Source: a virus
Lineage: Duplodnaviria; Heunggongvirae; Uroviricota; Caudoviricetes
DNA length: 43,220 nt
Reading direction: 5' to 3' (one strand)
IMG/VR virus record: IMGVR_UViG_2526164633_000017
The number at the start of each line of letters is the position of its first letter. The first letter of the stretch is position 1. Below are positions 5,560 through 25,077 of this stretch, piece after piece. Under the pieces are notes generated by a model, which worked only from the letters and a program-made list of their open reading frames with translations, made no database searches and was not told the DNA's origin. The translations under genes and the position numbers were made by a program.

Positions 5560-7098
5560 TTATTCAGTCGGCAGTGCTACGCGCCAGGGGAGCAGTTCGC
5601 CGACCCGGTTTATCGGCCAGTCGGCTATGACGTCAAGGACATAGCGGAGGTAGCTTTCTGGCTCCACTCCGTTCAGTTTGCACGTCCCGATCAGGCTGTA
5701 CAGCAGCGCTCCCCGCTCTCCTCCATGATCCGAACCGAAGAACAGGTAGTTTTTGCGGCCCAGACTGACCATCCGCAACGCATTTTCAGCGATGTTATTG
5801 TCCGCCTCAGCCCAGCCATCATCTGCATAGTACGTCAGCGCCGGCCACTGGTTCAGGGCGTATGCGAACGCTTTCGCCAGTTCTGAGTGTCGCGACAGGG
5901 TTTTCATCTTTTCACGCAGCCAGCTTTCCAGGGATTTCAGCAGCGGTTTCGTTTTCAACTGACGTTCGGCAAGGCGCTGCTCCGCCGTCATTCCCCTTAT
6001 CTCTGCCTCGATGGCGTACAGTTCGCCGATCCGTTTCAGCGCTTCCTCCGTCAGGGCTGACGGGGTGCGAACGTGCACATCGTGGATTTTACGGCGGGCG
6101 TGAGCCCAACAGGCGGCTTCCGTTATCCGGCCATCCCGGTACAGCTCGTTGAACCCGGCGTATGCATCCGCCTGCAGTACACCACTGAACCCCGCAAGAT
6201 GGGTCTGCGGATGGATGCCTTTTCTGTCCGGGCTGTAAGCGAACAACACCGCCGGCGCCAGCGTTGACCCGGCGTTACGGTCGTCACGAACGTAGGTCCA
6301 TAACCGCCCGGTCTTCGTTTTCTTATTGCCTGGCAACAGCACCGGGACAGGCGTGTCATCAGCATGGAGCTTACCGTCAGTCAGCACATAGTCCTGAAGC
6401 GCTTCTTCCAGCGGTGACAGTAGCCGGCAGCATGCATCCACCCAGCCCGACAGCAGTGAACGACTCAGCTCCACGCCCTGGCGGCCGTACATTTCAGACT
6501 GGCGGTACAGCGGGGTGTGCTCTGCATACTTTGAGATCAGCACGCGGGCCAGCAGCCCCGGTCCTGCGATACCCCGCTCGATGGGCCGTGAAGGCGCGGG
6601 GGCCTGCACGATGGCATCGCACTGAGTACAGGCATGCTTTTCACGTACAGTCCGGATAACCCGGAAGGCGCTGCGCATCAACTCCAGCTGTTCGGCGGCA
6701 TCCTCACCCAGATAGCTCAGTGAGCCTCCACATTCCGGGCAGCATGATGCTGCCGGCAGCAGCCGTTTTTCATCGCGGGGGAGTGATTCGGGGAACGGTT
6801 TGCGGGTGCGGGTTTGACGCAGCGGGCGCTGCACGGCCGGGTCGTCAACCCGACCGGTAAGGGTATCACTTTCTTTCTGAAGTGCCTTCAGGTCAGCTTC
6901 CATCTGTGCGATACGACGGGAGACTTTTTCGGAGCGGCTGCCGAAGTTCATCCGGCGCAGCTTATCCAGCTGTGCCTGCAGATGGTCTATTTCGCGTTCA
7001 CGCTCGTTCAGCTTTTCCAGCAGGGCACGGTTCAGCGCCTCCTGTTCGGCAAGGAGACGTTTCAGTGCATTGATATCGTCAGGAAGTGAGCTGCTCAT
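5560..7098 (-). CDS. tnpC: IS66-family transposase (large ORF)
   Basis: 512-aa ORF with N-terminal leucine-zipper-like region, CPECGG zinc-finger motif and DDE-type core; typical third ORF of IS66 elements. Confidence 0.8.
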
Positions 7099-7146: not shown

Positions 7147-7494
7147 TTACAACATAGTCAGGGACGTAAGCAGTCTTTTAGGCTGCCGCCAGTCGATACC
7201 TTCCAGCAGCATCGCCAGCTGTGCCGGTGTGAGGAACACTTTGCCATCCCGGGCTGACGGCCAGGCGAAGCGGCCGCGCTCCAGCCGTTTGGTCAGCAGA
7301 CACAGTCCATCGCCGGTAGACCAGAGGAGCTTTACCTGACTGCCATTACGCCCACGGAAGATAAAAACGTGACCTGACATCGGATCGTCTTTCAGCGTCG
7401 TCTGCACCTTTGCCGCCAGGCCGTTGAAGCCGTTTCTCATATCGGTGATGCCAGCGACCAGCCAGATCTTTGTCCCTGATGGTAATGGGATCAA
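7147..7494 (-). CDS. tnpB: IS66-family accessory protein (Orf2/TnpB)
   Basis: 115-aa ORF MIPLPSGTKIWLVAGITDMRNGFNGL..., overlaps upstream ORF stop; IS66 second ORF. Confidence 0.8.
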   Translation of the reverse strand: MIPLPSGTKIWLVAGITDMRNGFNGLAAKVQTTLKDDPMSGHVFIFRGRNGSQVKLLWSTGDGLCLLTKRLERGRFAWPSARDGKVFLTPAQLAMLLEGIDWRQPKRLLTSLTML

Positions 7495-7895
7495 CGTTTG
7501 AGCTCCCGTATCAGCAGGTTCAGGATATTTTCGCTGATGGCACCATTCAGACGGAGTGATCCGTGCCGGAACGTCACTTCACAGCTGATATTGAGTGATT
7601 CAGGTGTCGCAGCAGCTACAGGTTGTGACCGGGGGGAGGTTGTAGGGACAACATCTTCGGCATCAAGTGTTATCGGGAGCAGCTCAGGCACGTTGTTTTC
7701 TGTTGTTGAAGGAGGACGTAGTTTTCCTTCGCGCCAGTACTGGCGCCACTTGAACAGCAAATTATCGTTGATCCCATGCTCACGAGCGAGTTGCGCTACG
7801 GAGATCTCTGGTCGATGCGAGAGTTCAACCATTTTGATTTTGAACTCAACGGGATAATTAGGGCTTTTTTTACGCACTGCGGTTAATGATTTCAT
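7491..7895 (-). CDS. tnpA: IS66-family accessory protein (Orf1/TnpA, HTH)
   Basis: 134-aa ORF with HTH-like segment (SVAQLAREHGINDNLLFKWRQ); first ORF of IS66 arrangement. Confidence 0.8.
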   Translation of the reverse strand: MKSLTAVRKKSPNYPVEFKIKMVELSHRPEISVAQLAREHGINDNLLFKWRQYWREGKLRPPSTTENNVPELLPITLDAEDVVPTTSPRSQPVAAATPESLNISCEVTFRHGSLRLNGAISENILNLLIRELKR

Positions 7896-8724: not shown

Positions 8725-10797
8725 TTACCAGCCCGTAATGTAGTTATCGCCCGCGTAAATATTCAGCCCCATACCGTCCTCGGTGACGCGGGAACTGGTC
8801 AGACGTAACCCCTCGCCAAGTTCGACGCGCAGCGAGGCTTCCGCATTGACTTTTTGTTCCTGCGGTTCCTTATCCGTGGCCGTCCATTTCTGATACAGGT
8901 CGGTTACAAAACCGCCCAGATACTCCCCGGCGACACTGCCCAGCGTGGCACCGGCAACCGTACCCAGCGGTCCGGCAAGGCTGCCAACGGCACCGCCGAG
9001 CCATGCACCGGCTGTACTGCCAATTGCGCCTGCTTTTTCATGGGTTGACGCCTGCTCATCCATCAGGACGGGGGCAAGCTGGAGTGCCCCCATTACCGGG
9101 CCACCCAGACGTGACAACGCACGACCGGCACCTTTCCCCATCCAGCCCAGCGCCCCGGCACCTTTTGTCACAACCCGACCGATCGCACTGCCTGCAAGTT
9201 TGTTTCCGATACCGGAAAACCACCCGCCAGCGGCACGCCCGGCATCAGCCAGCTTTCCGACCGTTCCCGTAACCAGTTGCCCGGCAGCACTGCCTGCAAG
9301 CCTGCTCAGAAGACCGGATTTACCGGGTAAAGGTAATGGTGCAGGCCGTGCCGTTACCGGTACGCCGGGTGGGGGTAATGCCAGTACAGGGCGTGGTGCA
9401 GGTAATGCCAGCGGCTGTGGCCCGGACAGCAATAACGGCTGGCGGGGTAACAGCGGGGCCATTCTTCCGCCGCTCCGTACGCGACGACCGCCGCCACTCC
9501 CGTAGCCACCAAATCCACGGGGCCAGTTGATGACAAACACACGCTGAATGCCGATACCCTGCAACAGCGTCTCAGACGTCATGGCATCCGGGACCGGCAG
9601 CCCTGCCTGCCCACGTTTGCGGTTTCGCATCCAGCGCCACATACGACGCCCGGTTTTAAACGGATAACTGGCAACCTGCCATGAGGGTTTTGCCACGGCC
9701 CAGCCTGCTCTCAGGGCTTTATTGGCAAGCCAGACAGACACCAGAACAGCAGCCAGTTTTTTCAGGCTGACAATATTCTGGTCAACCCATGCCAGCGCAT
9801 CTTTACCCGGTTTCAGCCAGCGCCATAACTCCTGCGCCGCGATTTTTACCGTTCTGAACGTGGTCAGAAATTTCTGACCAATGTTTTCTGCCAGTGCGTC
9901 AAGTTCCCCGGATTTATCCGCCATGTCGTGCCAGTTAAGCACCCGGCGCATCTCGTTCTTGATTTCTTCAAAGGGGCCGCTGTTTGCCACCTTTATGCGA
10001 AATTCAAGCAGGTTGGCTTCCATCTGGGCGAACATCCCGTCCCAGGAGTTCATCGCACTGGCCTGTGCACCTTTTGACTGTTCTGACAGCGTTCTGAATA
10101 CCGTCAGAATGGATTTCAGGCCCAGCTTGCCCTTTGTACCCAGATCACGGATTTTTTTAACGTCCGTTCCCGTTGCATCCGCCAGCGCCTGATAAACGTT
10201 GATACCGTAACCGGTCAGCAGGTTGGCATCCGCCGCTGTGATTTGCTGGCGGGCAAACATCTGTTTCAGTTGCAGTGAGGCACCCTGGGCAGTGGGTAAA
10301 TCCCAGCCGTGCATGGCCCCCTGATCCTGCAACATGGTGATGAACTGTTTCGTCTGTTCATCCGTCATGCCGAAGCCTTTCGACGAACGGATCTCATCCA
10401 GAACACCACTCAGCCCCCACGTGGTGTCCTTCGCGTTCTGCTTTGCCCAGGCCATCATGGCCTGCGCTCTGACCTTATCGCCGTGATACAGCGAGTTCAT
10501 GGCGATGATCTGCTGCTCACGCTGGGCGGCTGCACCAATAAACAGTTTATTGGCGGTGTAACCCACGCCAGCGATACCCAGCGCCCCGGCTGACAGCATT
10601 CGGAATGTACGGGTTGACAGTGAACCCATTCTGTCAATGGCACCAGAAACGCGCACAACCTCCATACGCAGGGCACGAAGGGAACTTTGCCCGCTACGGG
10701 ACAGGGCGTTTATCTGGTTCGAATACTGGCGGGAACGCCGGGAAAGATTGCCATTAAGATCAATAATGACAGACGCCTTTAAGCGTTTCCCGGTCAT
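8725..10797 (-). CDS. Tail tape measure protein
   Basis: 690-aa ORF, Gly/Ala/Pro-rich C-terminal half, located between tail chaperone/tube genes and baseplate genes. Confidence 0.85.
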
Positions 10798-10941
10798 AGA
10801 GATTTCCTGATTTAACGGTGATATTGAGAGAGGGTTTTAGCCTGCTGGCAGTGCCGGAAAAAGCGGGACAGCGGGAGAGACAAGGCCCATTCCGGGCCAC
10901 TTTTCAGAATAACGCCAATCGCTGTCGCCGCTTTCTCAATA

Positions 10942-11376
10942 TCATTCCGGCACCGCAGCCACTCGCCCCCGTTCTTGCGTCAGCGATGCCGCCACAGCCA
11001 TGTCGTACATTTCTGTGGCCAGCGACAGACGCTGGAAGTCATCGACAGACAGCTTACGAATCAGCGCCATCGACAACGGGCCTTTGATGCAGCCCACGCT
11101 GGCAATCTGTCGGCGCAGCATTTCCAGTCCCATCCGGGACGGGGAACTGACCAGCACCGGACCTTCCTTGCTCATTACCAGCTTTTCAGCAGCCGCCTGT
11201 GCATCAATCATATCGCCTGCGGTCAGTTCACGCAGCGTCACGTCATACTGCATTTCAGTCTCGTCACCGGTGCCGAACGGCAGGCCGTCTTTCAGTTTCA
11301 GCACGCCGGACTGAATTTCTGCCACAATGCTGTCATGCAGTTCCTGTGCTTCAGGACCTAAATTCATTTCGTCCAT
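10942..11376 (-). CDS. Tail assembly chaperone (Mu gp41-like)
   Basis: 144-aa acidic ORF directly upstream of the tape measure gene. Confidence 0.7.
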   Translation of the reverse strand: MDEMNLGPEAQELHDSIVAEIQSGVLKLKDGLPFGTGDETEMQYDVTLRELTAGDMIDAQAAAEKLVMSKEGPVLVSSPSRMGLEMLRRQIASVGCIKGPLSMALIRKLSVDDFQRLSLATEMYDMAVAASLTQERGRVAAVPE

Positions 11377-11385
11377 TGTTTCCCC

Positions 11386-11742
11386 TTATGCAATGCGTTT
11401 GCTTTGTTTTGCCATCAGTACCAGCGAAATTTCGCCGCCGTCGTTTTTCGGTTCATCTGCCTGCCAGGCATTCGCCATCATCCAGGTTTCACCGGTGTCT
11501 GCCTGAAACTCTGCCGTGATGTTTTCCCAGCCGATGATTTCATCCAGACCGATATCACCACCGCCCGGAATTTTGCATTCCAGCTTTGCGGCACGTGGTT
11601 TACCTTTCCAGCCATAAACCCGCGAGCCGGTCACTTCTTCACGGGTGATGCCGGAAGGCGTGAAGGAGGCCCCTTCCATCGTTTCAAGCTCCATGCCATT
11701 GACACGGATGAACGCCACCCCCTGACGCTGATTTCCAGCCAT
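11386..11742 (-). CDS. Tail tube protein
   Basis: 118-aa ORF immediately after the sheath gene. Confidence 0.8.
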   Translation of the reverse strand: MAGNQRQGVAFIRVNGMELETMEGASFTPSGITREEVTGSRVYGWKGKPRAAKLECKIPGGGDIGLDEIIGWENITAEFQADTGETWMMANAWQADEPKNDGGEISLVLMAKQSKRIA

Positions 11743-11751
11743 AAATGCTCC

Positions 11752-13239
11752 TTACAGAATGAACTGAACTTGTGCCGCGAAAATGCGGAACTGGTTAATC
11801 AGATTCGGGCCGCACAGCACATCAAGGCGGTCTTTGTCGTCCTTGTTACGTGCCACATACAGCTCCTCTTTGAACGTGTCGAAATCCTCGACCAGTCCGG
11901 CGTTTTCCCATTCTTCAAACAGTGCCAGCAGCTCCGTTTTAATCACGGATGGCGTCACCACGGCCTGACCGGTGGCAAAGCGGGTGCCATCACTTGCCAG
12001 CTTGTAGTTCGGGAATTTCTGCGTGATGCGGGTTCGCAGCGAATAACGCAGATAACTCAGCGTGGCGATGGTATTCACGTTCAGATAAGACGGATCGCTG
12101 TCACCGTACTTGTTTGTGCGGTACATCGTGATCATGCGTTCAATCTGCATTTCACCACCATCATTCACGTTAAACGTGGAGATGCCGTCAAACAGCAGCG
12201 CATTACGTTCTGACCAGGTGAAACGATCCCCCACCGCAGGCGGCATTCTTCCGGGCAACGTCAGCGTCTGGAGTGGACGCGCCGGGTCGATGGAAAGCGC
12301 CTGGCTGGCAACGGCACACAGGGTGGCGGCGTACAGATATGACGGTTCCGGTGCACCGGCAATCCCCATACAGGAAATCAGATGGTCATTACGGCTGACA
12401 CCAAACGTGGAAATATCCCCATACGTGCCGGACAGCACTGTCACGGCAAAGCCATCAGCCTGATTGACTGGTCCCCAGCGTTCCTGCAATTCAGTGCGTA
12501 ACAGATTCAGGTTCGGTTCATCGGTATAGGGCATCACAATATATTTGTATTGCAGATCGCCCATTCCCGCGATACTTGCGCTGATATCCGGGTTGCCATT
12601 TTTCCCGGAGGCGGCTTTGAATGCCGTGATAATCCCGTAAGGGGTCGTTTCACCCGCGTAATAGTTCCAGCGCACGTCCACGGCAGATAATGCACCCGTA
12701 AATTTTGCACTCAGAACCACATCTGCATGGGTGTCATCATCCCCGCTGTCTGCGCGAACTTCTGCCGTCACCGGTAAATCAGGCTGGCCTTTGATTCGGG
12801 CAACCAGCAGGTCAGCCAGCGCCGCTCCCGTTGCACCTGCTGCGACAGATACCGCCAGTCGCTGACCGGCAATGTAAGTCACAAGCGAGCCGTTTTCGCC
12901 TGCCGTTCCTGACAGTGAAATTTCACCGACAGCAGCATTACCGGTGCCATTCCCCTGCGGGATACACCACAGCTCCGCCACGCGGTTAGCGTTCAGGAAT
13001 GCATCTGCCATCAGTGCCAGCATGGAACCCTGACCAAACGCCGCACTGGCCTGTGAGCCGGAACGGATACGGACAGGCACGTTTGGTGCCGCACTGGCTT
13101 TACTTCCGCTTTGCCCGAACATCAGCACGCGCTGACGGGGTGCCGGTGTTCCGCTGACGGCATTACTGTTATCAAATTCGATATACGTCAGAGGAACGCG
13201 AACATCTGACGGGATCGCGTTAAATGAAATATCGCTCAT
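11752..13239 (-). CDS. Contractile tail sheath protein
   Basis: 495-aa ORF; size and position before tube gene; myovirus-type. Confidence 0.85.
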
Positions 13240-13442
13240 TTCGATTTACTCCGTTTTTTCGGCACAGCGACGGTATCATCCGCCGTGTTTTCGGTGCTCC
13301 CGACTTCAACCACATCACCGGCTGCAAGGCGACGTATCCAGAAACTGTTACGGGGCTTTTCTTCTCCCTCAGACGCCAGTAATTTCATCGTGAGCGGGTC
13401 ACGGATGGCTTTTCCCGCTGCGGGTTTAATTTTCAGCATCAT
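13236..13442 (-). CDS. Small virion-associated protein (Mu gp38-like)
   Basis: 68-aa ORF, translationally coupled between neighbours. Confidence 0.6.
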
Positions 13443-13974
13443 GATCCTTTTCCTGATTCACATTGATATGTGCGGCAAATTCCGGGGTTCCGTCCGGATA
13501 TTCCCAGGTCTGCCAGTGACGCTCATAATCATCCAGCGAGTCCGTATCCACCACGGACGGTAACGGGGTAGTGCCACTGAACAGAACACCGTAAAGCACC
13601 ACACCGGCATCGATACGGTTGTCGTTACAAAGATTTCTGACCTGCGTCAGTCTCATCCCGGTGGTCGGGCCAAACGTCTGACCGTTAACACCGGCAATCA
13701 GTCGCTCCACAATCTGATAAATACCGGGCCGGTTTACCTGTTCCCCGTTCAGCAACTCCGCCACGACAAAAAATGCCCAGCGACTTTCAACTTCCCGACG
13801 CGTACGCCCCTCACCACAGCCCATCCATGCCAGAAATACCGATGGCGGGGCCAGAAAGAGACGGTGCACATCCTCGTTAGTCCATGTGCCGGTAAGGGGT
13901 TCCACCTGCCGCAGGGTTGCCCCAAACAACTCACGAACGCGCGCCAGCAGTGCGGCTTCGGTTTCTTCCAGCAT
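13426..13974 (-). CDS. Head-tail joining/tail completion protein (Mu gp37-like)
   Basis: 182-aa ORF in conserved position. Confidence 0.65.
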   Translation of the reverse strand: MLEETEAALLARVRELFGATLRQVEPLTGTWTNEDVHRLFLAPPSVFLAWMGCGEGRTRREVESRWAFFVVAELLNGEQVNRPGIYQIVERLIAGVNGQTFGPTTGMRLTQVRNLCNDNRIDAGVVLYGVLFSGTTPLPSVVDTDSLDDYERHWQTWEYPDGTPEFAAHINVNQEKDHDAEN

Positions 13975-14399
13975 CAGATAAACCCCTTCTGTTTTCGTGA
14001 GAAGACCGGCGCGTCAGACTGCACCTGCACAAGGTTTTCACCATCCGGCGAGGCTGCCGTCCTGCTTTCCACGCCGGGATCTGTTTTGCCATCGCGCACC
14101 TGTTCCAGCCAGCGCACCGTGTCCCTGTAAGTTGCGATGAGCTGCTCGGTGGGTTGTGATTCATTCAGATAAAACCAGGCCACCACGCAACACTGCCGTT
14201 TCAGCAGTGAGGGGACGACGGTAAGCGGCAGAACAAAGCGCGCGGCGAGATAGCCATCAATAAAGGCCGAAGCATCTGCCAGTGCCTGTTCTGCCACGGC
14301 ATCATCCGGCTGCCCGTCCGCTGTTTTAGGGCGGGTGAGAATATCCAGCCGCGTACGTGTATAGCGGGCGCACAGGTCATTTACCGTCGCGTAATTCAT
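13974..14399 (-). CDS. Head-tail connector protein (Mu gp36-like)
   Basis: 141-aa ORF in conserved position. Confidence 0.65.
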   Translation of the reverse strand: MNYATVNDLCARYTRTRLDILTRPKTADGQPDDAVAEQALADASAFIDGYLAARFVLPLTVVPSLLKRQCCVVAWFYLNESQPTEQLIATYRDTVRWLEQVRDGKTDPGVESRTAASPDGENLVQVQSDAPVFSRKQKGFI

Positions 14400-14806
14400 G
14401 CATCCACCTCAGCCAGCGCCGCTTTGATTTGCGCACCGCTCACCGGTTCCCCCAGCGCCGCACTGACGGCTTTCACTTTGGGTTCCCCCCCTGCGGTAAA
14501 GTGTTCCGGGTTTGCCTTATCCAGACCGGCAACGGTCGCACGGATACGGGTATTCAGATCGCCCACACCCAGAACGTCCAGCCCCCCAGCCTCAGCGAGC
14601 GTTTCTGCTGACGATGCAGATACCACAGACAGCACGCTGTCGGCACGAATGATCGCCAGTTGTTCTTCGGTGACTTCCACGGTGTTTTCGCCACGCGTAA
14701 AGGCGATTCCGGCGCGGCGGTAGACCGGACGAAGGCATTTAATAATCGCCGTGCAAGTGATGCGAGAAGTGTCCAGCCGTTGTGAATTAAGCGAAGTGCC
14801 TGACAT
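14396..14806 (-). CDS. Head-associated protein (Mu gp35-like)
   Basis: 136-aa ORF downstream of major head gene. Confidence 0.6.
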   Translation of the reverse strand: MSGTSLNSQRLDTSRITCTAIIKCLRPVYRRAGIAFTRGENTVEVTEEQLAIIRADSVLSVVSASSAETLAEAGGLDVLGVGDLNTRIRATVAGLDKANPEHFTAGGEPKVKAVSAALGEPVSGAQIKAALAEVDA

Positions 14807-14840
14807 AACACATGCTCCTCCTTTTCCTTTAAATCAGGTT

Positions 14841-14864
14841 AAAAGGCGGTCTGAACCGCCTTTT
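14841..14864 (-). terminator. Rho-independent terminator-like hairpin after major head gene
   Basis: AAAAGGCGGT-CTGA-ACCGCCTTTT: 10-bp perfect stem, 4-nt loop, A-run on one side and T-run on the other, in the 66-bp gap after the capsid gene stop. Confidence 0.6.
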
Positions 14865-14872
14865 AATGACGG

Positions 14873-15790
14873 TTACAGGTAGTCAGCGACAACCAGTTGC
14901 AGCTTGCCCTTCATCTCGTTGGAGACGGTGGTATTGCCATCCGCGAACAGTTCACGGTTAAGCAGTTGCTCTGCGGCTTTTTCCAGCCCGACCGGTACAA
15001 CGATATGCGTCGGCTTCAGGCCCAGCTTCTTACCGCCATCACCTTCAAAAGATCGCATCAGTTGCCAGCCCTTCCAGAGGTTATCCAGCGTCAGATCGCC
15101 TTTTACCGCGACAGCCATCTGCCAGAAGCCGTAACCGGCAGCACGGCGGGCGCTGGCACCAAACAGGAACTCGTTATCCATAAAAACGTGGTCGTCATCG
15201 ATACGGGTACGTGCGACCAGCTCCGGTTTGCGGCGCTCCTGGAAAATCAGCGGTTTGACTGCGCGGGAGCAGTCCAGCAGATAGAACGGCAGACCGCTGA
15301 AGCTGTCCTGCTCAACGATGTTGGAGGTATTAACCGCGCTGCCCGTGCCGTCCACATTCGGATATACCGGATGCTCCTTGTCGAAGAAGTTCTGACCGTC
15401 ATAGCACGGCTGGGTAAAGCCATCTTTCAGAAGTTTAAAAATCAGCTCATCCGGCTGAACTGCCGCAGAACGCCCCATCTCCTGAAAAATCGGCGCATAA
15501 ATACCCAGATTGTCATCCTCGAAGTCATCACGGGAAATACCCACGGTGCCTTCAAACGTTTTATTGGCGATGGAGTAGCCATGCGCTTCCATTTGCTGAA
15601 TGGTTCGCTTACCCACCCATTCTTTCAGGGTCGAGAATTTACCCAGCCAGCCATAGGTATTACTGCGGGTGGAAGAGTTCACCACCATTGCAATTTTGCT
15701 GTACTGCGACGGGGCGTCTTCAAGACCGCCCTGAAAATCCTTACGCCAGGAGGTCATCAGGGCTTTAATGGATGCCGGGGTGACAATCAT
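14873..15790 (-). CDS. Major head (capsid) subunit (Mu T/gp34-like)
   Basis: 305-aa ORF following protease/scaffold gene, followed by terminator hairpin. Confidence 0.85.
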   Translation of the reverse strand: MIVTPASIKALMTSWRKDFQGGLEDAPSQYSKIAMVVNSSTRSNTYGWLGKFSTLKEWVGKRTIQQMEAHGYSIANKTFEGTVGISRDDFEDDNLGIYAPIFQEMGRSAAVQPDELIFKLLKDGFTQPCYDGQNFFDKEHPVYPNVDGTGSAVNTSNIVEQDSFSGLPFYLLDCSRAVKPLIFQERRKPELVARTRIDDDHVFMDNEFLFGASARRAAGYGFWQMAVAVKGDLTLDNLWKGWQLMRSFEGDGGKKLGLKPTHIVVPVGLEKAAEQLLNRELFADGNTTVSNEMKGKLQLVVADYL

Positions 15791-16872
15791 TTTTCTTGTT
15801 CCTGTTTCATTTTCAGATACTCAGCCTCAGTAATGCCGAGCGCCTTCACTGCTGCCTGTTCATCAGCAGACAGCACCGCCACCGCCGGTTTTTCCTGCGA
15901 CGGGATTTTCGCTGTGGTGGTCTGCATGGCAGATAACGCAGCGATGGGCTGTTTTTTCTCAAGCTGTGCCGACAGTGCCGCCACGCCAATCTGACCGCCA
16001 AGCTGTTCCAGGTAGGTACGTTCGCTTTTGAAAATGCGGCCTTCCTGTTCCGCCTTGTCCAGAACGGCGCTCAGGCTGGCTGTGGCGCTTTGTGCAGTCG
16101 CCTGTGCCAGTTCATCACGCAGGGCGTTGTAGCTTTCCACAGGGACGTATTTCGTCAGGTCAACGGCGGCTTTCTGTGCCTTTTCCAGTTCGGCGGATAA
16201 CGACGCCACTTTTCCGGCATCTGTTTCGAGCGCATCAAGCGCACTCAGGGCCGCGCTGGCCTGTTCATCGGTGATGTCTGCATTTTCGGGGACAGTCACC
16301 CCAAGACGCGCAAGCAGCTTGCGCAGCGTTTCATTCATGGGTTTGTTCTCCTGTTGAAGGATGTCGGGAAGGTCTGCCGCCAGTGCGGTCAGCTTTTTCA
16401 TGCCGGTGGCACCGGGGTCATTGGTCAGCGCAGCAAGGCGGATTTGCAGCACCGCACCGGTGGCGGTGTCATACGGAAAAACCGCAGAGAGATAACCAAA
16501 TTCGCCGTCATCGATGCGCTGCTGGGCCGCCGCCGTCCAGCGTGGGTGGATAAATAACCCTTCACCTTCACGCCACTGCATTTCATCGGCGTTAAACCAG
16601 CCAGCCGCGACGAGTTGTTCCGGGGGTAATCCTTTGTCCTTACGTAGCTGGTTATGCTCGTAATCAATCAGCACGTCCTGGTTGAGCGCGCGAACGCCTT
16701 CAACCAGACGCCCGGCAATCTCACCGTCGATGAACCACCCCTGACCACCTGTCACATCAAACGGGCGACCATCACGGGCACTGAAATGACCGGCAGGCAA
16801 TAGCTGGCACCAGCCGTCATCGTCAATGGACAGCGCATTCAGTGCGGCAATGCCAATCGCGTGTTTTTTCAT
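15787..16872 (-). CDS. Head maturation protease/scaffold protein (Mu I/gp32-like)
   Basis: 361-aa ORF with Ala/Gln/Glu-rich coiled-coil C-terminal half typical of scaffold domain. Confidence 0.8.
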   Translation of the reverse strand: MKKHAIGIAALNALSIDDDGWCQLLPAGHFSARDGRPFDVTGGQGWFIDGEIAGRLVEGVRALNQDVLIDYEHNQLRKDKGLPPEQLVAAGWFNADEMQWREGEGLFIHPRWTAAAQQRIDDGEFGYLSAVFPYDTATGAVLQIRLAALTNDPGATGMKKLTALAADLPDILQQENKPMNETLRKLLARLGVTVPENADITDEQASAALSALDALETDAGKVASLSAELEKAQKAAVDLTKYVPVESYNALRDELAQATAQSATASLSAVLDKAEQEGRIFKSERTYLEQLGGQIGVAALSAQLEKKQPIAALSAMQTTTAKIPSQEKPAVAVLSADEQAAVKALGITEAEYLKMKQEQEK

Positions 16873-17068
16873 GTCCTGCTGCTCATCATGGTTTGTGAGC
16901 AGTCAGTTTGCGGGAGGTGCGGGAAAATCTGGGGTTATGCTATTTGAGTACTGGAGAAAGAAAGTGGAAGGAAGATAAAACGGGATTCATACACCGTTAA
17001 ATACCGGTTTAAAAATCCCGTGGCGCGTTTTAAAAAATCTGTGCGGCTGATTTCATGTCTGATTCCGT
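16873..17068 (-). promoter_or_regulatory. Candidate late promoter region upstream of protease/scaffold gene (P_I-equivalent)
   Basis: 196-bp non-coding gap in otherwise tightly packed operon; on the transcribed strand contains GCATAACCCCAG about 110 nt upstream of the ATG. In Mu a C-dependent late promoter lies upstream of gene I. Confidence 0.4.
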
Positions 17069-17539
17069 TTATTGCCTCAGAGCGGCGCTGACGCGTTTTC
17101 TGATGGCATCAAAAATTTCCTGTTCCCCGGTCTTATCCAGCCCCATATAAGGACGCGCAGGAACGCCTGCCGGGCGGGGTGCCATATCGGGTGTACCGCC
17201 CCACTGATGGATGGCAGCATAAATTTTTGGCGAACCAATCAGGGCATAATCCTGTCCATAATCGGTGGTAATGCTGCGTGCCAGATCGCCATGCAGGGTA
17301 AGGATACTGCCCGGAACAAAACCATGATCCTGACGCCATGCCTGCCACGAATCGCTCCACGCTTCCCAGCCTTTCCCTGTATCCGGGTCTGCCTGCCGTT
17401 CAAATGCCTGTTCCGTGGATGACAGCAGCGCCGCAGCCATCACACGGGGAATGGCGCGGTCACGTGTAACGGTTCCCAGTTCATCCAGTGCAAGCTGAAT
17501 ACGTCGCACATCCACGGCAACGTTCATATCAAGACTCAC
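17069..17539 (-). CDS. Virion morphogenesis protein (Mu G-like)
   Basis: 156-aa ORF between F-like and I-like genes. Confidence 0.75.
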   Translation of the reverse strand: MSLDMNVAVDVRRIQLALDELGTVTRDRAIPRVMAAALLSSTEQAFERQADPDTGKGWEAWSDSWQAWRQDHGFVPGSILTLHGDLARSITTDYGQDYALIGSPKIYAAIHQWGGTPDMAPRPAGVPARPYMGLDKTGEQEIFDAIRKRVSAALRQ

Positions 17540-18891
17540 TTATTCACCTCCACATGCCCCTCCAGTACGTCAATCATCCCGTCAGCAATCGCGGCTTCAA
17601 GCGACTGTGCAGATACGCGGCTGATACTGACCAGCACATCCGCACGGTCATTCTGCCTGCCGACTGTCTGTGATGTTCTGACTACAATCCGGGCCATGCC
17701 GTCACGGGTTGCCACAACATACAGCAACTGGTGGTTCTCCCTGTCCCACAATACTGCCTGTGGTTTTGCCATCAGCGACGGCAGACGCTGTAAATCTTCC
17801 GGTTTCAGGGCGGCATCAGCAGTGGTCGCCAGACTTTTCCCGTTCATCACAAGCAGACGGGCTGGCATATTCCCGGTGCGCTGATGTACGGCTTCAGCTA
17901 CCGATTCCGTCATAAAACCCAGTGCCCGGATTTCATGAGCGGTCTGACGTGATCCTGCCAGGCGTTTAAGCCAGAGGGAAAAAGCAAGCTGACGCTCCCG
18001 GCTGTTATTCAGCGTCTGAACAACCTGCTCACGCAACTGCGCGTCGCGAATTTCCACCAGTTTTCGAATCAGTGCCTGATCCGTACCAAACGCCGCCGAA
18101 CCCGGGTTATATGACCAGCCCACATCCGGCGTCATTTTTACCCGACCGTTGTCAAACGTGGTTGACGATGTGCGGAAAATCTCTCCGGTGCTTTCATCCA
18201 TACCGGCGTCCACTTCGCGGGTATTCATGAATGACGCACCATAACTGACCTGTAGCCCCAGTTCTTTCATGCGGGCCGCAGACACCGCCCGGACGCGACA
18301 GCGGCAGTTCCAGCCATTGGGCGGGTAATGCGTCTGCCAGAAAATGTCGTCATACCTGAAAACCATATTGTGCAGCCGCGCATGTTCCGGGCGTGTTCTG
18401 CCATCCATAACGGCAACGTACTGCCAGTATGGATACAAATCTGCGGTATTCATCATCTGCGCATAACGTCCTGCCCCATACGCCGTACGGGTATTGACGT
18501 TATAAATGGTTGCCAGACGACGCGGACTGCCCAGCTCGATTACCTTTGCGTTTCCCTCTGCATCCACGATGATTTGTTTTCCCCACCATCCGAGTTTTTG
18601 CAGCCGGGGGGCCAGTGTGCGGGTAAATTCCTCACGGGTGATGCCTTCACTGACAGCCCGCTCCACTTCCTCACGGATTGTGGTCAGGACATCCATCCGG
18701 GTGGCTTTGGCAACGGTAAAGGCGCGGGCGTGCGCGTCTGCCAGTTGTTCGTACCAGTTCCAGGTGATGTTGTAGCCTTTGGCGCGGAAATACGCGACAG
18801 CCTCCTTTGGCGGGAGGCGTGCGGCATACGCCAGATCAATGGTCTGCTGCGGCATCCAGACGCCCCCATATATCGGCAACAAAAATGGCAC
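17536..18891 (-). CDS. Minor head/head morphogenesis protein (Mu F/gp30-like)
   Basis: 451-aa ORF after portal gene; true start may be the internal ATG at 18855 because 18836-18891 overlaps portal 3' end. Confidence 0.8.
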   Translation of the reverse strand: MPFLLPIYGGVWMPQQTIDLAYAARLPPKEAVAYFRAKGYNITWNWYEQLADAHARAFTVAKATRMDVLTTIREEVERAVSEGITREEFTRTLAPRLQKLGWWGKQIIVDAEGNAKVIELGSPRRLATIYNVNTRTAYGAGRYAQMMNTADLYPYWQYVAVMDGRTRPEHARLHNMVFRYDDIFWQTHYPPNGWNCRCRVRAVSAARMKELGLQVSYGASFMNTREVDAGMDESTGEIFRTSSTTFDNGRVKMTPDVGWSYNPGSAAFGTDQALIRKLVEIRDAQLREQVVQTLNNSRERQLAFSLWLKRLAGSRQTAHEIRALGFMTESVAEAVHQRTGNMPARLLVMNGKSLATTADAALKPEDLQRLPSLMAKPQAVLWDRENHQLLYVVATRDGMARIVVRTSQTVGRQNDRADVLVSISRVSAQSLEAAIADGMIDVLEGHVEVNK

Positions 18892-20374
18892 GGGTCAGCA
18901 TGTCGATAAGTTCTGCATCATCCATCTGCGGATATAATGAAGCGGCTTTGTTCATGGCGGCTTCCGGGCCATCTTTCAGCACAGAAAAAATGACGGGTTT
19001 CAGCAGGGGATCAACCGAACGCTGCCAGTCTTCCGGTGAAACGCCCATCCGGTCGACATCATCCTCCTGCGGGATATCATCAGCGGATAATGCGGCTTCT
19101 TTCTGCGGACCGTTATCCGGGACAACCGGTTGAGCAGTAAACACGGCTTCGTCACCGACCGGCTGTGGAATATGGAGTTTTTCCTGTATCCAGGAGACCG
19201 GAATACGCATTCCCGCCGCCAGTTTCGGAATGGCGTCAGACAGTGCCGTAATATCACCCGCTTCACTGGTATCAAACACAATGCCCGGCAGGCGGTTAAT
19301 ATCAATGGTGCTGTCACTGTTCAGTGCCAGCAGGGGATAAATCAGATCACGGTTAATACTGCGGGCAAGCTGGCCCACATCCGCGTTACGGATTTCCCGG
19401 CGAACCTCATCATGCACTTCACCCAGCGACCGTGCGCCTTTATCGCCAGCCTCTGTGGTCAGGGTGCCGCCCAGAATGGCTTTTGAAATCGCTTTTTCTG
19501 CCCAGCCAATCATCGCCATAAAGGGGTCTGACTGACCATCTGCGGCGCTCTGAAAATCCAGCGTCATCCCCATCGGAATAATGCCACCGGCACGTCGCCC
19601 GATATCCATCACGGCCTGCATCAGCGTGGCTTTCTCGCGGTTCGTGGAGCCGGTCGGATATTTACCGACGCGCATGGGGAGTCCGTAAATTTCCAGAAAC
19701 TCTGCAAAATCACGCACGGAATAGTTTTTAAAAATAAAAGGCCAGATAAGCGTGCGCACAAGGCCATTGGTGCCGACATACCCGGTGCGGGATTTGGCCC
19801 GGTGCATAAACCAGCCGAACGGTTGCAGCTCCAGCCCGTGATAAGACGCATCACGCAGGTGTAATTCGTTCAGATTGTCGGGGTTCGCGCAGAACAGCGC
19901 CGGATCGCGATGATGCAGCGCCACCGGCACGCGCATTTTCCCCAGCCAGCCCCATTCAATCTCCTGCATGGAATAGCCCTTGAGAATGGCATCACCGGCA
20001 TCAAACAGGGCATCTTCAAACCACGCCGCATCATGCAGATATTCATTCAGCATGTCAGCGTCTTTTTTCTCCTGTGCGCTGGCATCACGTGCCGGAGCGA
20101 TGCGCCATTCCAGCGCCTGAATGGCAAGGCGGCGTTTGCTCAGTTCGGAAAAAAGGTGGGTGTCCTTTTCTTCCATATCAAAGGCCAGGTCAGCCTGTGC
20201 TGTCAGATCACCGCGTTCGGCATCACGCAGCATCTGCGCGGCCCGGTTCGGCGTCACACCACTGGAAGGATGCTCCTGCGTACGCTTCATGACCATTGCC
20301 AGCTCATCGCTGCGGGTCTGCATTTCATCGTCAAAATCAAACGGCTGCCCGGAAATATCCAGAATACGGCCCAT
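18836..20374 (-). CDS. Portal protein (Mu gp29-like)
   Basis: 512-aa ORF immediately after large terminase gene. Confidence 0.85.
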   Translation of the reverse strand: MGRILDISGQPFDFDDEMQTRSDELAMVMKRTQEHPSSGVTPNRAAQMLRDAERGDLTAQADLAFDMEEKDTHLFSELSKRRLAIQALEWRIAPARDASAQEKKDADMLNEYLHDAAWFEDALFDAGDAILKGYSMQEIEWGWLGKMRVPVALHHRDPALFCANPDNLNELHLRDASYHGLELQPFGWFMHRAKSRTGYVGTNGLVRTLIWPFIFKNYSVRDFAEFLEIYGLPMRVGKYPTGSTNREKATLMQAVMDIGRRAGGIIPMGMTLDFQSAADGQSDPFMAMIGWAEKAISKAILGGTLTTEAGDKGARSLGEVHDEVRREIRNADVGQLARSINRDLIYPLLALNSDSTIDINRLPGIVFDTSEAGDITALSDAIPKLAAGMRIPVSWIQEKLHIPQPVGDEAVFTAQPVVPDNGPQKEAALSADDIPQEDDVDRMGVSPEDWQRSVDPLLKPVIFSVLKDGPEAAMNKAASLYPQMDDAELIDMLTRAIFVADIWGRLDAAADH

Positions 20375-22029
20375 TACCAGCCCCCTCGTTCAAACTGGTG
20401 ATAATCATCAAAATCATCGTTATCAACACCATCACCACGGTGGCGTGGTGGCAGCGCCTGTATGCTGTCCTCGTCGATAACAAAACCATTCATATAAGAC
20501 GCCCTGACAGCCATACAGAGCGCCACGGCAAAGTCGCCATGTCGTCGGCCTTTACCGCCTTCGTCTTTTGTGCGCCCCTTATCAATCTGCGGAATACCTT
20601 TGTCCACCTTGATGTGGAGCAGGTCATCAAGTGTGGTCTGGTGCCGGGCAATCGTGATGTTCTGCGCTTCAAACTCGCCTTTCAGTTTCGGCATCCACTC
20701 CTGATACCAGGATGCGGTCAGATTCACACAGTCGATCATCTCCGGGCCATAAATCAGACGGGCGGCTTCTGCCAGATAACCGCCGTTACCGGTGGCATCA
20801 AATGCAGCGCCGGTAAAACGGGGCAAACGGGACAGAATGAATAAAAGGATTTGTCGCTGCTGGTCATAGGTCACATTACGCAGCTCCACGCGGAAACATT
20901 CGCGTTTGCGTAAGTCAGGAGTGATGGCAAGCGGCACAAACACCGTCAGGTCGCCACGGCGTGCAAAGTCTTCGCCCAGTACGTGTTTATTGAGCGGCGA
21001 CAGCGCATCGAGCAACGGGAGCAGCTCCTGTTCACACCAGTCCTGAACGATGCCGTGGCGCATTTGTGGTGTCAGCGATTCAAAATCGTCCGGGGCTTCA
21101 AAACGCAGAATCGGGATATCCCGCACTGGCGTCATGGCGGCTTCAATCAGCACGCGTGACAGATAAGCGCCCCCGGATTTTTTGGGAATGCAGCCGTATT
21201 CCTCGTCGGCACTCTCTTTATTCGGCGCATTCCGGTACAGGCCATCACGCCAGGCTTTTTCCGCTTCCGGCGACCACGGCTGATTCGTGACGTAACAGAT
21301 ACGTCGGTACAACCCGTCAGCGATGGCATCATCCAGCGTGATGCGGTGAACGCTGTAATCCTTGCGCCCCTCGCGCGCATCCTGAATGTACTGGTTAAAC
21401 AGGTTATCGACGCCGTTATGTGTCGATATGATCCGCACGCGGGCACCCCACATGGTGAGAGCAAAAGCCGCTTTCAGGAGTTCGTCCAGGGCTTCATGAA
21501 ATGCCGCCTCATCAATCACCACGTCTCCCTGCAAACCACGCAGGTTAGACGGACGGCTTGACAGCGCCTGCACCTTAAATCCGCTGTTAGGGAAACGGAT
21601 CATATAAGTGAGGATTTCTTCTTTTTTGTCGCTGTCCCAGAAGGTCTGCTCCCATACGTCAGCCTTTGCCAGTTGGTTAAAGGCGCGGGCAAACAGGGCA
21701 CAGGCGGCAATGTATTCCAGCGCCATTTCCTGACGGGAACCCACATAAAAAACGTTGCGACCGCCACGGCGACGCGGCTTTGCTGCCGTCATGACATTGC
21801 GGCCCGCTTCGGCCCATGTCAGACCGGTACGACGGGATTTTTCAGCAATACAAATCTGGCTTTCATCCTCAAACCAGCGGCGCTGATAACCCAGAAAAAC
21901 CGGTTCATTGCGGGGCTGTGCTTCCCCGATATCGGTAACGATATTCACGCCCAGCAGTTCGGCTTCCTTACGCAGGTCGATTTTTCGGGGGGCATGAAGG
22001 GCTTTAAGATTGTTTTCTCTGGTGTTCAT
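20374..22029 (-). CDS. Terminase large subunit (Mu gp28-like)
   Basis: ORF track gives 20374..22221, but the upstream 64 codons overlap the preceding gene; ATG at 22027-22029 (MNTRENNLKALH...) lies just after that gene's stop and is the likely start. Confidence 0.85.
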   Translation of the reverse strand: MNTRENNLKALHAPRKIDLRKEAELLGVNIVTDIGEAQPRNEPVFLGYQRRWFEDESQICIAEKSRRTGLTWAEAGRNVMTAAKPRRRGGRNVFYVGSRQEMALEYIAACALFARAFNQLAKADVWEQTFWDSDKKEEILTYMIRFPNSGFKVQALSSRPSNLRGLQGDVVIDEAAFHEALDELLKAAFALTMWGARVRIISTHNGVDNLFNQYIQDAREGRKDYSVHRITLDDAIADGLYRRICYVTNQPWSPEAEKAWRDGLYRNAPNKESADEEYGCIPKKSGGAYLSRVLIEAAMTPVRDIPILRFEAPDDFESLTPQMRHGIVQDWCEQELLPLLDALSPLNKHVLGEDFARRGDLTVFVPLAITPDLRKRECFRVELRNVTYDQQRQILLFILSRLPRFTGAAFDATGNGGYLAEAARLIYGPEMIDCVNLTASWYQEWMPKLKGEFEAQNITIARHQTTLDDLLHIKVDKGIPQIDKGRTKDEGGKGRRHGDFAVALCMAVRASYMNGFVIDEDSIQALPPRHRGDGVDNDDFDDYHQFERGGW

Positions 22030-22036
22030 AACCCTC

Positions 22037-22627
22037 TCATGCCTTACCCAGCAGCACATCACGGATACGCTGCTCCAGCTCTTCGCTGATGCCATCCTGC
22101 CCGCGCAGTTCTTCACTGACGGCGTTTGCCGCTTCTTCTGCGAATGCCTGGCGGATTTCTTTCTCGCGCCGGTGGCTGGACATTGCCGTGGATTCCAGAC
22201 GCTGTGCCGCCAGCATGGCATTTTTCAGCAGGTCAATATCCACGTCAGATTCCGGGTTTTCGATTTGCCGCATCATGGCCTTAAAAAGCTGGCTGCGGGC
22301 CATTTCCAGAATCAGCTTTGTGGTTTCTCCCATTGGCTTGTCGCCAAGTTCTGCGGTCAGTGCTGACGTCATTTCACGCATCTGTCGCAGGTTATGGCCT
22401 ACCTGCTCGACGTTCGTCGCGTAACGGTTCAGACCGGAACGGGAGAGTTTCATCTCATCCGGCAGGCCAGCGTCTTCAATCAGTGCGTTAATTTCTTCCA
22501 GAATGCGGGCCTGTGGGATCGCTTTATCACGCAGCATTTCATGCAGCGTTTTACGTACGTTTTCCGGCAGTAAATCCACTTTTGAAGCCCGGCCCCGTGT
22601 TTTCCTGTCCATCACGCCTCCTGTCAT
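22037..22627 (-). CDS. Terminase small subunit-like DNA-binding protein (Mu gp27-like)
   Basis: 196-aa ORF directly upstream of large terminase. Confidence 0.65.
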   Translation of the reverse strand: MTGGVMDRKTRGRASKVDLLPENVRKTLHEMLRDKAIPQARILEEINALIEDAGLPDEMKLSRSGLNRYATNVEQVGHNLRQMREMTSALTAELGDKPMGETTKLILEMARSQLFKAMMRQIENPESDVDIDLLKNAMLAAQRLESTAMSSHRREKEIRQAFAEEAANAVSEELRGQDGISEELEQRIRDVLLGKA

Positions 22628-22914
22628 GCACGGGGACGAGGACGCTTGACACCGGCAACGCGGGCACGACCTTCCGCCACATCCTGACCTCGGGAGGTCA
22701 GCGTTACGACATAAAAGCCGCGCAGGTTTTCCACGGTGACCAGTTGCTGCTCTGCCAGCCAGTCAATCTGGCCGCGAACCACATCGCGGGAAACGTTGTG
22801 TCCGTATGCATCCAGACAGTCCTGAAGGATGGATTCGTTTGCTTCGTTATTGCAGTCCATCAGGGAACGCAGGATGACCAGACGACGGTCTTCGGTCAGA
22901 ATATCGTTAATCAT
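22624..22914 (-). CDS. Hypothetical protein (Mu gp26-like by position)
   Basis: 96-aa ORF, translationally coupled to neighbours. Confidence 0.55.
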   Translation of the reverse strand: MINDILTEDRRLVILRSLMDCNNEANESILQDCLDAYGHNVSRDVVRGQIDWLAEQQLVTVENLRGFYVVTLTSRGQDVAEGRARVAGVKRPRPRA

Positions 22915-23228
22915 GAATTACTCCGGTTTACTGCGTTTTCAAGCAGCAGCTCCAGTTGATGGGAAAATGACTGCACCCGCTGGGACAGCACCCGGATATC
23001 GCCGGACAGCTCTGCAATTCGCAGGCGCATTTCGTGTACATCTTCTGTGCCAGGGATGCTGGCGTAGCGGGTTTCCATTTCGGTCATCCGGTTTTCAAGA
23101 CGCTCCACACGCTCAGTGCTGGCAAAACTACGACGCATTGCCCAGACGGCCCCACCGGCCACAACAGGCAACAGGTAAGGCCATAACGCTAAAACTGAAA
23201 TCAAATCCATTATTCTGCTCCACGGCAC
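22911..23228 (-). CDS. Membrane-anchored lysis-associated protein (Mu gp25-like)
   Basis: 105-aa ORF with one N-terminal hydrophobic segment (LISVLALWPYLLPVVAGGAVWAM) then coiled-coil-like region; located in lysis cassette. Confidence 0.6.
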   Translation of the reverse strand: MPWSRIMDLISVLALWPYLLPVVAGGAVWAMRRSFASTERVERLENRMTEMETRYASIPGTEDVHEMRLRIAELSGDIRVLSQRVQSFSHQLELLLENAVNRSNS

Positions 23229-23404
23229 CAGTGGCAGTAGTTCGCCATCGGCTGCTGTCTCAGCACATCAGGCCGCAGCTCACGACCGCAACCGGGACAC
23301 AATACAGGCGGGTCATACGCCGCCGGGCGGGGAATATCACGGGTATCCCCCTGCCAGAGTTCAGCGAGCAGCAGCGCCACCGCCCGGTTCTGGTCTTCGT
23401 TCAT
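23210..23404 (-). CDS. Small zinc-ribbon protein
   Basis: 64-aa ORF with CPGCG...CHWC pairs. Confidence 0.5.
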   Translation of the reverse strand: MNEDQNRAVALLLAELWQGDTRDIPRPAAYDPPVLCPGCGRELRPDVLRQQPMANYCHWCRGAE

Positions 23405-23702
23405 AAATTTCTTTCCTTCGGGTCTCCTGTTCCCGGACTGATGCCTTGTCGCGGTTGCACTGCCCGAGCGCCATCAACAGGTCAGCATTCCAGAGAAGGG
23501 ATGCTCCCCACGTCAGGGGCTGTGGCATGGGCGGAACGGGCGTTGCTTCCGTCAGTTCTGCATCAGTTTCGGGCAGGATCACCACCGATGGCACGGGTGC
23601 GTTTTTCGAGTTCCCGCAACCTGTCAGCAGCAACGGCAGGCACAGGACGAGTGCTGCAATTGTCACCGGTAATGGCGGTTGTAATTTTTTGTTTTGCATC
23701 AT
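23361..23702 (-). CDS. Outer-membrane spanin lipoprotein (Rz1-like)
   Basis: Start ATGATG at 23697-23702 inside the Rz-like gene in another frame; signal peptide MMQNKKLQPPLPVTIAALVLCLPLLLTGC with lipobox LTGC; Pro-rich mature part; overlaps i-spanin 3' end. Confidence 0.7.
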   Translation of the reverse strand: MMQNKKLQPPLPVTIAALVLCLPLLLTGCGNSKNAPVPSVVILPETDAELTEATPVPPMPQPLTWGASLLWNADLLMALGQCNRDKASVREQETRRKEIYERRPEPGGGAAAR

Positions 23703-23949
23703 GATGTTCTGTCTCGTCTGCCAGCCGCGCGGCACGATTTGCGGCACGGATAGCGGAAAATACCTGCATCGTCTGTTCCTGACCGTGTAACAACCATTCA
23801 GCCGTGTTGCGGGCCTGTTGCTCCGTCTGTAATTCACGGCGCAGCGTCTGGTTATCGTGGCGGGTGCTGTCCAGCCTGTGCCACAACACCCCGGACAAAA
23901 CGGCGGCAAACACGGCTGCCAGCAGTAAACTTTTACTGGCGAAGGTCAT
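23563..23949 (-). CDS. Inner-membrane spanin (Rz-like)
   Basis: 128-aa ORF with N-terminal TM segment (SLLLAAVFAAVLSGVLW) and charged coiled-coil periplasmic domain; directly after endolysin. Confidence 0.75.
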   Translation of the reverse strand: MTFASKSLLLAAVFAAVLSGVLWHRLDSTRHDNQTLRRELQTEQQARNTAEWLLHGQEQTMQVFSAIRAANRAARLADETEHHDAKQKITTAITGDNCSTRPVPAVAADRLRELEKRTRAIGGDPARN

Positions 23950-24451
23950 CCGCCCCCCTGATATTCCAGATAGCCATTTCCACTTCGCGACGGTTCATCA
24001 GTCCTTTCCATTTATGGCCTGCGGCAAACACCCAGCGGGCCATCTGGTCACGCGCTCCGGCGTAATCACCGGCATTGAGTTTTTTCAGCAGCGTTGATTT
24101 ACTGAATGCGGTAACACCGGTGTTGAAAATAAACGTTGCCAGCGCCGTTTTCTGATATGGCGTCAGCGGCACCCTGACAAGACGATCGATTGCCGCATAA
24201 ACCGGTTTTAAATCACTGTCGAGGAGAGCCATACACTCCGCATGGCTGTAACGGCGCATTTCGATATCCGGCCCGGTATGCCCCACACAGACCGAAAGCA
24301 CACCGCCAATATCGCGGTAAGGCATATAAGCGATATTTTCCAGGTGGATCAGAGACTGACGGGTCATTTCCTGATAACCACCCACACCGCCACCGGCAAT
24401 CGTTACAGCCAGCAGTGTGGCTTTCAGTTTTTTTGGTATCCCCGCCATCAT
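23933..24451 (-). CDS. lys: Endolysin, lysozyme-like with N-terminal signal-anchor-release (SAR) type segment
   Basis: 172-aa ORF; Gly/Ala-rich weakly hydrophobic N-terminus (LKATLLAVTIAGGGVGGY) followed by E-x8-D catalytic-type motif (ENIAYMPYRD) typical of T4-lysozyme-type muramidases. Confidence 0.8.
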   Translation of the reverse strand: MMAGIPKKLKATLLAVTIAGGGVGGYQEMTRQSLIHLENIAYMPYRDIGGVLSVCVGHTGPDIEMRRYSHAECMALLDSDLKPVYAAIDRLVRVPLTPYQKTALATFIFNTGVTAFSKSTLLKKLNAGDYAGARDQMARWVFAAGHKWKGLMNRREVEMAIWNIRGADDLRQ

Positions 24452-24521
24452 GCTTCCCTGAAAAAATGCTCTGATGGCAGTCTAAAAAATCAGGTGGCAG
24501 GTGCGGGATTATGGTGACAGG

Positions 24522-24548
24522 AAATAACCGGCAGGATGCCGGTTATTT
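24522..24548 (-). promoter_or_regulatory. Perfect interrupted palindrome AAATAACCGGC-N5-GCCGGTTATTT between C and lys; candidate activator site for late lys promoter and/or transcript end
   Basis: 11-bp arms at 24522-24532 and 24538-24548, overlapping the stop codon of the C-like gene, about 75 bp upstream of lys ATG. Confidence 0.45.
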
Positions 24549-24965: not shown

Positions 24966-25006
24966 ATTTTCCCCCGGTTAACAGACAAAAAGATACACCA
25001 CGGCAC

Positions 25007-25020: not shown

Positions 25021-25077
25021 ACCACAAGGGCAATCACTTTTATCGCATTAATCAGCGTGGACGGCCCGAAACATTCA

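Follow-up and report, generated by a model that had tools for sequence, protein, structure and literature searches.

Organisation of the chaperone-tape measure region

The window, the whole 43,220-nt stretch of DNA that was analysed, contains a Mu-like prophage in reverse orientation. The list of open reading frames (ORFs) and the Pfam assignments place the Tail_tube, Gp41_Mu and TMP_3 genes consecutively on the minus strand. The tail tube gene lies directly upstream of the chaperone gene, which fixes the canonical order of tube, chaperone and tape measure. The features of the region are as follows:

13239..11752, minus strand: tail sheath gene (ORF list and Pfam Phage_sheath)
11742..11386, minus strand: tail tube gene, Mu gp40/M (Pfam PF10618 Tail_tube, E=3e-35; Mu_40 annotation)
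11376..10942, minus strand: tail assembly chaperone gene, 144 aa in the zero frame, Mu gp41 and analogue of lambda gpG (PF23746 Gp41_Mu, E=9e-35; phrog_508; Mu_41 in AF083977)
11376..10812, minus strand: CDS of the frameshift product, 188 aa, Mu_56 and analogue of gpGT (translation; AF083977 join 23552..24116, base for base)
10971..10963, minus strand: slippery site C GGG GGC GA (sequence; the same in Mu and D108)
10944..10942, minus strand: chaperone stop codon TGA (sequence)
10941..10815, minus strand: portion of the gap, about 42 codons, in which the -2/+1 frame codes for the T-like extension (substitution pattern; alignment; phrog_12783)
10814..10812, minus strand: extension stop codon TAA (sequence)
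10811..10798, minus strand: true non-coding spacer of 14 nt, atcAGGAaatctct (sequence)
10808..10805, minus strand: tape-measure ribosome binding site (RBS) AGGA (sequence; the Mu RBS is annotated at the equivalent position, 24120..24123)
10797..8725, minus strand: tape measure gene, Mu gp42, 690 aa, ATG at 10797 (Pfam PF20155 TMP_3, E=5e-16; Mu_42 annotation)

The chaperone matches the Gp41_Mu profile along its entire length (positions 1-107 of 107) with 119.5 bits, against a gathering threshold of 27 bits; its match to PF10109 Phage_TAC_7 is sub-threshold, at 24.7 bits with a cut-off of 25. The first-pass annotation had described a 144-bp interval between the chaperone and tape measure genes, and this is exact: it runs from 10941 to 10798, with all features on the minus strand. 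A G-rich stretch near the end of the chaperone gene, likewise pointed out there, was found as CGGGGGCGAG at 10971..10962, 18 nt 5′ of the chaperone stop codon. That an alternative frame is open also holds, but for 55 consecutive codons without a stop (10979..10815), of which about 12 overlap the 3′ end of the chaperone gene and about 42 lie in the gap, rather than for 48 codons within the gap. The gap is not fully open in this frame: the open part covers 127 of its 144 nt and leaves out the 14 nt before the tape-measure ATG. Nor does the frame continue to one codon before that ATG, since it closes at the TAA at 10814..10812, about five codons short. The observation of the interval is thus confirmed, with minor numerical corrections. 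The -1 frame is shut 12 codons past the chaperone stop codon.

Among the 23 minus-strand genes of the prophage, stop-to-stop runs of at least 55 codons make up 10% of the runs in the +1 frame, and the per-codon stop rate gives a probability of about 0.086 that 55 codons are open. Because runs of this length are frequent by chance, openness alone is weak evidence, and the earlier caveat that such a run could arise by chance in GC-rich DNA was justified. We therefore left the length of the open run out as evidence and used conservation as the test.

Identity with phage Mu and existing annotation

In a search with the 900 nt around the gap, identity was 99.3% with Escherichia phage Mu (AF083977 / NC_000929) and 95-99% with D108, SfMu and a number of Yersinia Mu-like phages. 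On a larger scale, Mu 9832..32255 is 98.2-98.3% identical to the window and collinear with it except for a 2.4-kb insertion. Over the 221 nt that comprise the slip site, the gap and the start of the tape measure gene, two bases differ from Mu. One, 8 nt before the G-run, is a zero-frame synonymous difference (ACG/ACA, Thr); the second falls within the 14-nt spacer. The slip site, CGGGGGCGA, the whole 51-aa extension, its stop codon and the tape-measure RBS are identical to those of Mu gp41 / Mu_56, so that the element is the same one; the slip site is also the same in D108.

In AF083977, Mu_41 (23552..23986) is annotated as 'tail assembly chaperone', and Mu_56 is a two-piece join (23552..24116) with the same start as Mu_41. 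Mapped to the window, Mu_56 corresponds to 11376..10812 and ends at the TAA identified here. The comparison with annotated Mu-like phages that the first-pass annotation had suggested thus finds the same feature already recorded as a joined CDS. The record describes Mu_56 as 'verified -2 translational frameshift in PMID 15469818; tail assembly chaperone frameshift product'. We conclude that the feature is the Mu gp41 frameshift cassette, and that it is already described and annotated.

Other records treat the same sequence differently. The D108 RefSeq entry (NC_013594 24019-24165) gives the extension as a separate hypothetical 48-aa gene, 41.5, for which the coordinates would put the start at a CTG located 16 nt ahead of the end of gp41. 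In the Yersinia phages MT374852-6 and MT591577, all three matched features are labelled just 'hypothetical protein'. The joined frameshift CDS of AF083977 is absent from the D108, phrog_12783 and Yersinia phage records. The extension is therefore mis-annotated in several places, as 'hypothetical protein' in D108 and the Yersinia Mu-like phages and as 'unknown function' in PHROG. The source cited for the -2 frameshift in Mu is the work of Xu, Hendrix and Duda (Mol Cell, 2004). As a textbook instance of natural programmed -2 ribosomal frameshifting dating from 2004, the feature carries little weight as a discovery. The Mu case is cited in passages of two reviews (PMC5009743, PMC3498833), the second of which quotes an efficiency of 2.2% in the part that deals with Mu, and a passage of PMC2628397 has the wording '-1 (or -2 in Mu)'. 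What is established from the window and its relatives is the anatomy of the locus, its identity with Mu, the conservation of the site and the extension, and the coding signature; the occurrence of the shift, its -2 direction and its low level (about 2%) are taken from the literature and the GenBank annotation.

Compared with Mu, the prophage in the window has an interrupted gene N and a differing early/left-end region, whereas the cassette itself is unchanged. The insertion, of 2.4 kb at 5523-7969, belongs to the IS66 family and lies within the homologue of Mu gene N/gp43 (DNA circularisation / baseplate hub). About 15 bp of Mu sequence (26944-26958) are present on both sides of it. It carries three ORFs:

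7895..7491, minus strand: IS66 ORF, HTH_Tnp_1
7494..7147, minus strand: IS66 ORF, TnpB_IS66
7098..5560, minus strand: IS66 ORF, DDE_Tnp_IS66 (E=9e-107)

Because of the IS66 element in gene N, the tail module may no longer function here, and the prophage is probably defective for tail assembly or DNA injection, as judged from this interruption; the frameshift cassette is intact in this copy. Further from the cassette, the early region (25100-35404) shows patchy identity to Mu of 81-97% and is far more diverged than the late region, and Mu 1-3226 (the c repressor, ner and the N-terminal part of transposase A) gave no megablast match. This divergence points to an immunity/early module unlike that of Mu, as is the case for D108. 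The portion of the window from 35405 to 43220 is 99.7-99.8% identical to structural genes of lambdoid prophages that many E. coli chromosomes carry (terminase large subunit, portal, S49 peptidase, major capsid and FI). Given that these genes lie past the expected Mu left end (~35405), the Mu-like element appears to have transposed into another prophage.

Conservation of the slip site and of the extension

We compared the slip site in two samples. The genomic sample comprised 26 loci encoding Gp41_Mu relatives with 38-63% protein identity, from Kluyvera, Erwinia, Edwardsiella, Vibrio, Aeromonas, Shewanella, Rheinheimera, Marinomonas, Photobacterium, Pluralibacter and Bilophila; the viral sample comprised 80 IMG/VR viral contigs. 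Of the 26 genomic loci, 23 have GGGGGCGA with CGA as an Arg codon of the zero frame, and of the 80 viral contigs 76 have CGGGGGCGA with a zero-frame CGA. In an anchored comparison, conservation is 90% or more in the eight columns of the motif, compared with 30-80% on either side. The protein alignment agrees with this: Gly137 and Arg138 do not vary and Arg136 scarcely does, whereas the remainder of the C-terminus is variable. Because both R-G-R in frame 0 and G-G-D/E in frame -2 constrain these nucleotides, their conservation is not fully independent evidence of a slip signal.

The extension is kept together with the site. In every relative the -2 frame encodes an extension of 46-51 aa that begins GG(E/D), and it ends between -23 and +14 nt relative to the start of the tape measure gene; in the window it ends 14 nt before the ATG. 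Its length and end point are kept in more than 100 relatives, and the extensions can be aligned with one another and share the motif PL(S/R)R(L/F)xR. The first-pass annotation had named a lack of conservation of the site and of the extension as what would tell against a frameshift, and both are kept in distant relatives. We conclude that conservation puts the extension frame well above chance.

A substitution test was made on seven enterobacterial relatives, using the part of the gap past the zero-frame stop codon. Pairwise differences in this part, counted by -2-frame codon position, number 189, 86 and 321, and synonymous codon differences number 197 in the -2 frame versus 72 and 11 in the other two frames. 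This codon periodicity, together with a synonymous excess that is confined to the -2 frame, indicates that the extension is under protein-coding selection.

Among protein families, the extension matches phrog_12783 ('unknown function') with E=5e-30. Searches against Pfam found nothing, even at E<=10, and there was no match among PDB sequences; the idea that the extension is homologous to known T domains was dropped for want of a Pfam or PDB match. A resemblance to P2 E′ found no support either.

In one group of relatives (L015-L027, from Vibrio, Rheinheimera, Shewanella, Enterovibrio and Photobacterium), the G-run is preceded at a distance of about 10 nt by a Shine-Dalgarno-like AAGGAG, and CGA is followed by a single codon before the zero-frame stop (GGG CGA NCT TAA); Mu has neither. 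These could be clade-specific stimulators, or the AAGGAG could simply reflect conserved K-E-L coding. As a general feature, an upstream Shine-Dalgarno-like stimulator was rejected: AAGGAG is missing in Mu and the enterobacterial relatives, and it codes for K-E-L in frame 0.

Taken with the identity with Mu and the Mu_56 annotation, this conservation supports the earlier reading of the gap, in which a programmed frameshift at the G-rich stretch extends the chaperone into it. The gap is almost certainly the 3′ part of the frameshifted second form of the Mu tail assembly chaperone. The locus has the gene position, the overlapping start-less ORF ending at the tape measure, the conserved slippery site and the coding selection that characterise G/GT-type pairs. 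The recoding site was evidently recognisable to a first-stage reader from raw sequence.

Direction of slippage and function of the long form

In the proposed mechanism, the zero-frame site would be read as CGG (10971-10969), GGG (10968-10966) and CGA (10965-10963). The P-site tRNA-Gly on GGG (10968..10966) would re-pair two bases back on GGG (10970..10968), and would do so perfectly. After such a slip the A-site codon would be GGC (10967..10965), followed by GAG TGG CTG and onward to the TAA at 10814..10812. The codon CGA is read by I:A wobble and is rare in E. coli; its presence in the A site is a likely pause that would let the P-site tRNA slip. Most ribosomes would be expected to read through to the TGA at 10944..10942 and make the 144-aa gp41, and only a small fraction would slip. 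Joining 11376..10966 (137 codons) to 10967..10812 (51 codons plus TAA) gives a product of 188 aa, the same length as the Mu_56 join. It ends ...TQERG-GEWLRCRNDIEKAATAIGVILKSGPEWALSLPLSRFFRHCQQAKTLSQYHR, with the junction ...TQERG-GEWLRC....

The first-pass annotation had proposed a search for a slippery heptamer and a downstream structure. The first part of this search found the conserved G-run site but no classical heptamer: the X XXY YYZ motif of -1 frameshifting is absent at the site, and the -1 frame is short in nearly all relatives. The second part found nothing detectable. The 113 nt from the slip site (10972..10860) fold no more stably than shuffled sequences (z=-0.19), RNAalifold on nine relatives returned +0.43 as the covariation term and one compensatory pair among 24, and Rfam held no relevant match. 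On these three results a downstream stimulatory RNA structure was rejected. With the Mu 10-mer on its own, shifting into the -2/+1 frame was 14% in a PURExpress system (bioRxiv 10.1101/2025.10.02.679949), which argues that the short slippery sequence is sufficient.

The -2 and +1 shifts reach the same frame and their products are one Gly apart, so they are inseparable by sequence, and the assignment of -2 rests on the experiment cited by GenBank. The same holds for the reporter assays of the 2025 preprint, in which -2 and +1 are not separable. A +1 slip, of tRNA-Gly from GGG to GGC or of tRNA-Arg from CGG to GGG, or a mixture of -2 and +1, would give a product of 187 aa with the junction ...TQERGEWLR. 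Database proteins with this junction exist (P0001, P0002 and P0006), though theirs comes from a missing G in the DNA, and in relatives with four Gs a +1 slip onto GGC is possible where perfect -2 re-pairing is not. For Mu itself, however, the record says 'verified -2', and the reviews by frameshifting specialists repeat -2 in the passages that treat Mu. Moreover, the -2 slip in Mu is a perfect GGG-to-GGG re-pairing, whereas +1 needs a wobble mismatch. We consider +1 slippage, alone or in a mixture, improbable as an account of the Mu cassette.

The four-G relatives bear on the family as a whole. Four-G variants of the site are TCGGGGCGA, CAGGGGCGA and UCGGGGCGA; the Edwardsiella type (L009/L064) has TCG GGG CGA, and L062/L063 have CAG GGG CGA, in both cases with separate frames and a conserved extension. 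Because the fifth G is missing, a perfectly re-paired -2 slip is impossible in these relatives, and L009/L064 and L062/L063 may shift +1. It is conceivable, although we would not favour it, that the direction of slippage is not fixed in the Gp41_Mu family, with most members (NGG GGG CGA) shifting -2 and a small clade (G GGG CGA) using +1 or a mismatched -2.

In some assemblies (L006, Kluyvera CP022114; L008, Erwinia tracheiphila JBHMFM01; L055; proteins P0001, P0002 and P0006), the run has four Gs and the chaperone and extension are fused into one protein of 187-199 aa (...RGEWL...). Some 70 nt further on, L006 lacks another single G, a pattern typical of homopolymer errors in long reads. The fused forms may be real 'hard-wired' GT-only prophages.

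Slippage of RNA polymerase on the run of five Gs, with one G lost or two gained, would reach the extension frame at the level of the transcript. There is a homopolymer at the junction, and the assemblies with fused forms lack one G, which would fit such an origin. However, five Gs are short for productive polymerase slippage. The conserved downstream CGA fits an A-site pause, whereas it would serve no purpose in slippage of the polymerase, and the published assignment of the Mu shift is translational. The fused forms are DNA-level variants, with two G-run deletions within 70 nt in the case of L006. We regard polymerase slippage as very unlikely. We give slightly less credence still to an independent small gene in the gap with its own start, the arrangement implied by the 48-aa CDS in the D108 RefSeq entry and by the separate PHROGs family phrog_12783. 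ATG and GTG are both absent from the 55-codon run, and its sole TTG leaves 23 aa and lacks a Shine-Dalgarno sequence; the D108 start is an implied CTG. The peptide is conserved right from the G-run (GG[ED]...), which lies upstream of every possible start, and the slip site is conserved family-wide. That the gap is a non-coding spacer with a frame opened by chance in G+C-rich DNA can practically be dismissed: about 10% of +1-frame runs reach 55 codons, but the third-position and synonymous excess is seen in the -2 frame only, the length and end point of the extension are constant in more than 100 relatives, and the extension has a PHROG homology.

Ribosomal frameshifting within gp41 therefore remains the preferred reading, and the closest comparison is with lambda gpG/gpGT. 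The lambda pair occupies the same position, with the tail tube/major tail gene on one side and the tape measure gene on the other, and likewise has a rare long form with a C-terminal T domain; a presumed role in tape-measure-guided tube assembly is shared (PMC5009743). The shifts differ, in that lambda uses a -1 shift at a G GGA AAG heptamer whereas Mu uses a -2 shift of a single P-site tRNA on a G-run, and no sequence similarity was detected between Mu gp41 or its extension and the lambda chaperones (Pfam Gp41_Mu versus the lambda families). P2 gpE/gpE+E′ is likewise a chaperone pair of a contractile tail, and gp41 falls just short of the cut-off for PF10109, 'Phage tail assembly chaperone proteins, E, or 41 or 14', but P2 uses a -1 shift of higher efficiency (PMC5009743), and the Mu extension has no Pfam match. 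In several Listeria phages and the Bacillus subtilis phage SPP1, tail-gene frameshifts of +1 reach the same frame as in Mu (PMC3498833); there the +1 shift was shown by protein sequencing, whereas Mu is reported to use -2 and to gain one residue more.

In lambda, gpG binds the tape measure protein, as does gpGT through its G part, and the T domain binds the tube subunit; the T domain seeds tube polymerisation, and both chaperones leave the assembly (PMC5009743; PMC4493119). By analogy, both forms of the Mu chaperone would coat the tape measure, the rare long form would recruit tube subunits, and neither form would be expected to end up in the virion. From its position and architecture, we infer a T-like domain function for the extension in Mu.

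Only modestly new here are the breadth of GGGGGCGA conservation across the Gp41_Mu family, the four-G variants and the persisting annotation gaps. If the direction of slippage does vary within the family, the true signal would be the invariant GGGGCGA, in which a Gly codon precedes the slow CGA, and a single family would alternate between -2 and +1 recoding. Both GGGGGCGA and the extension of 46-51 aa span the Gammaproteobacteria and Bilophila, and they offer a possible annotation rule for Gp41_Mu-type chaperones.
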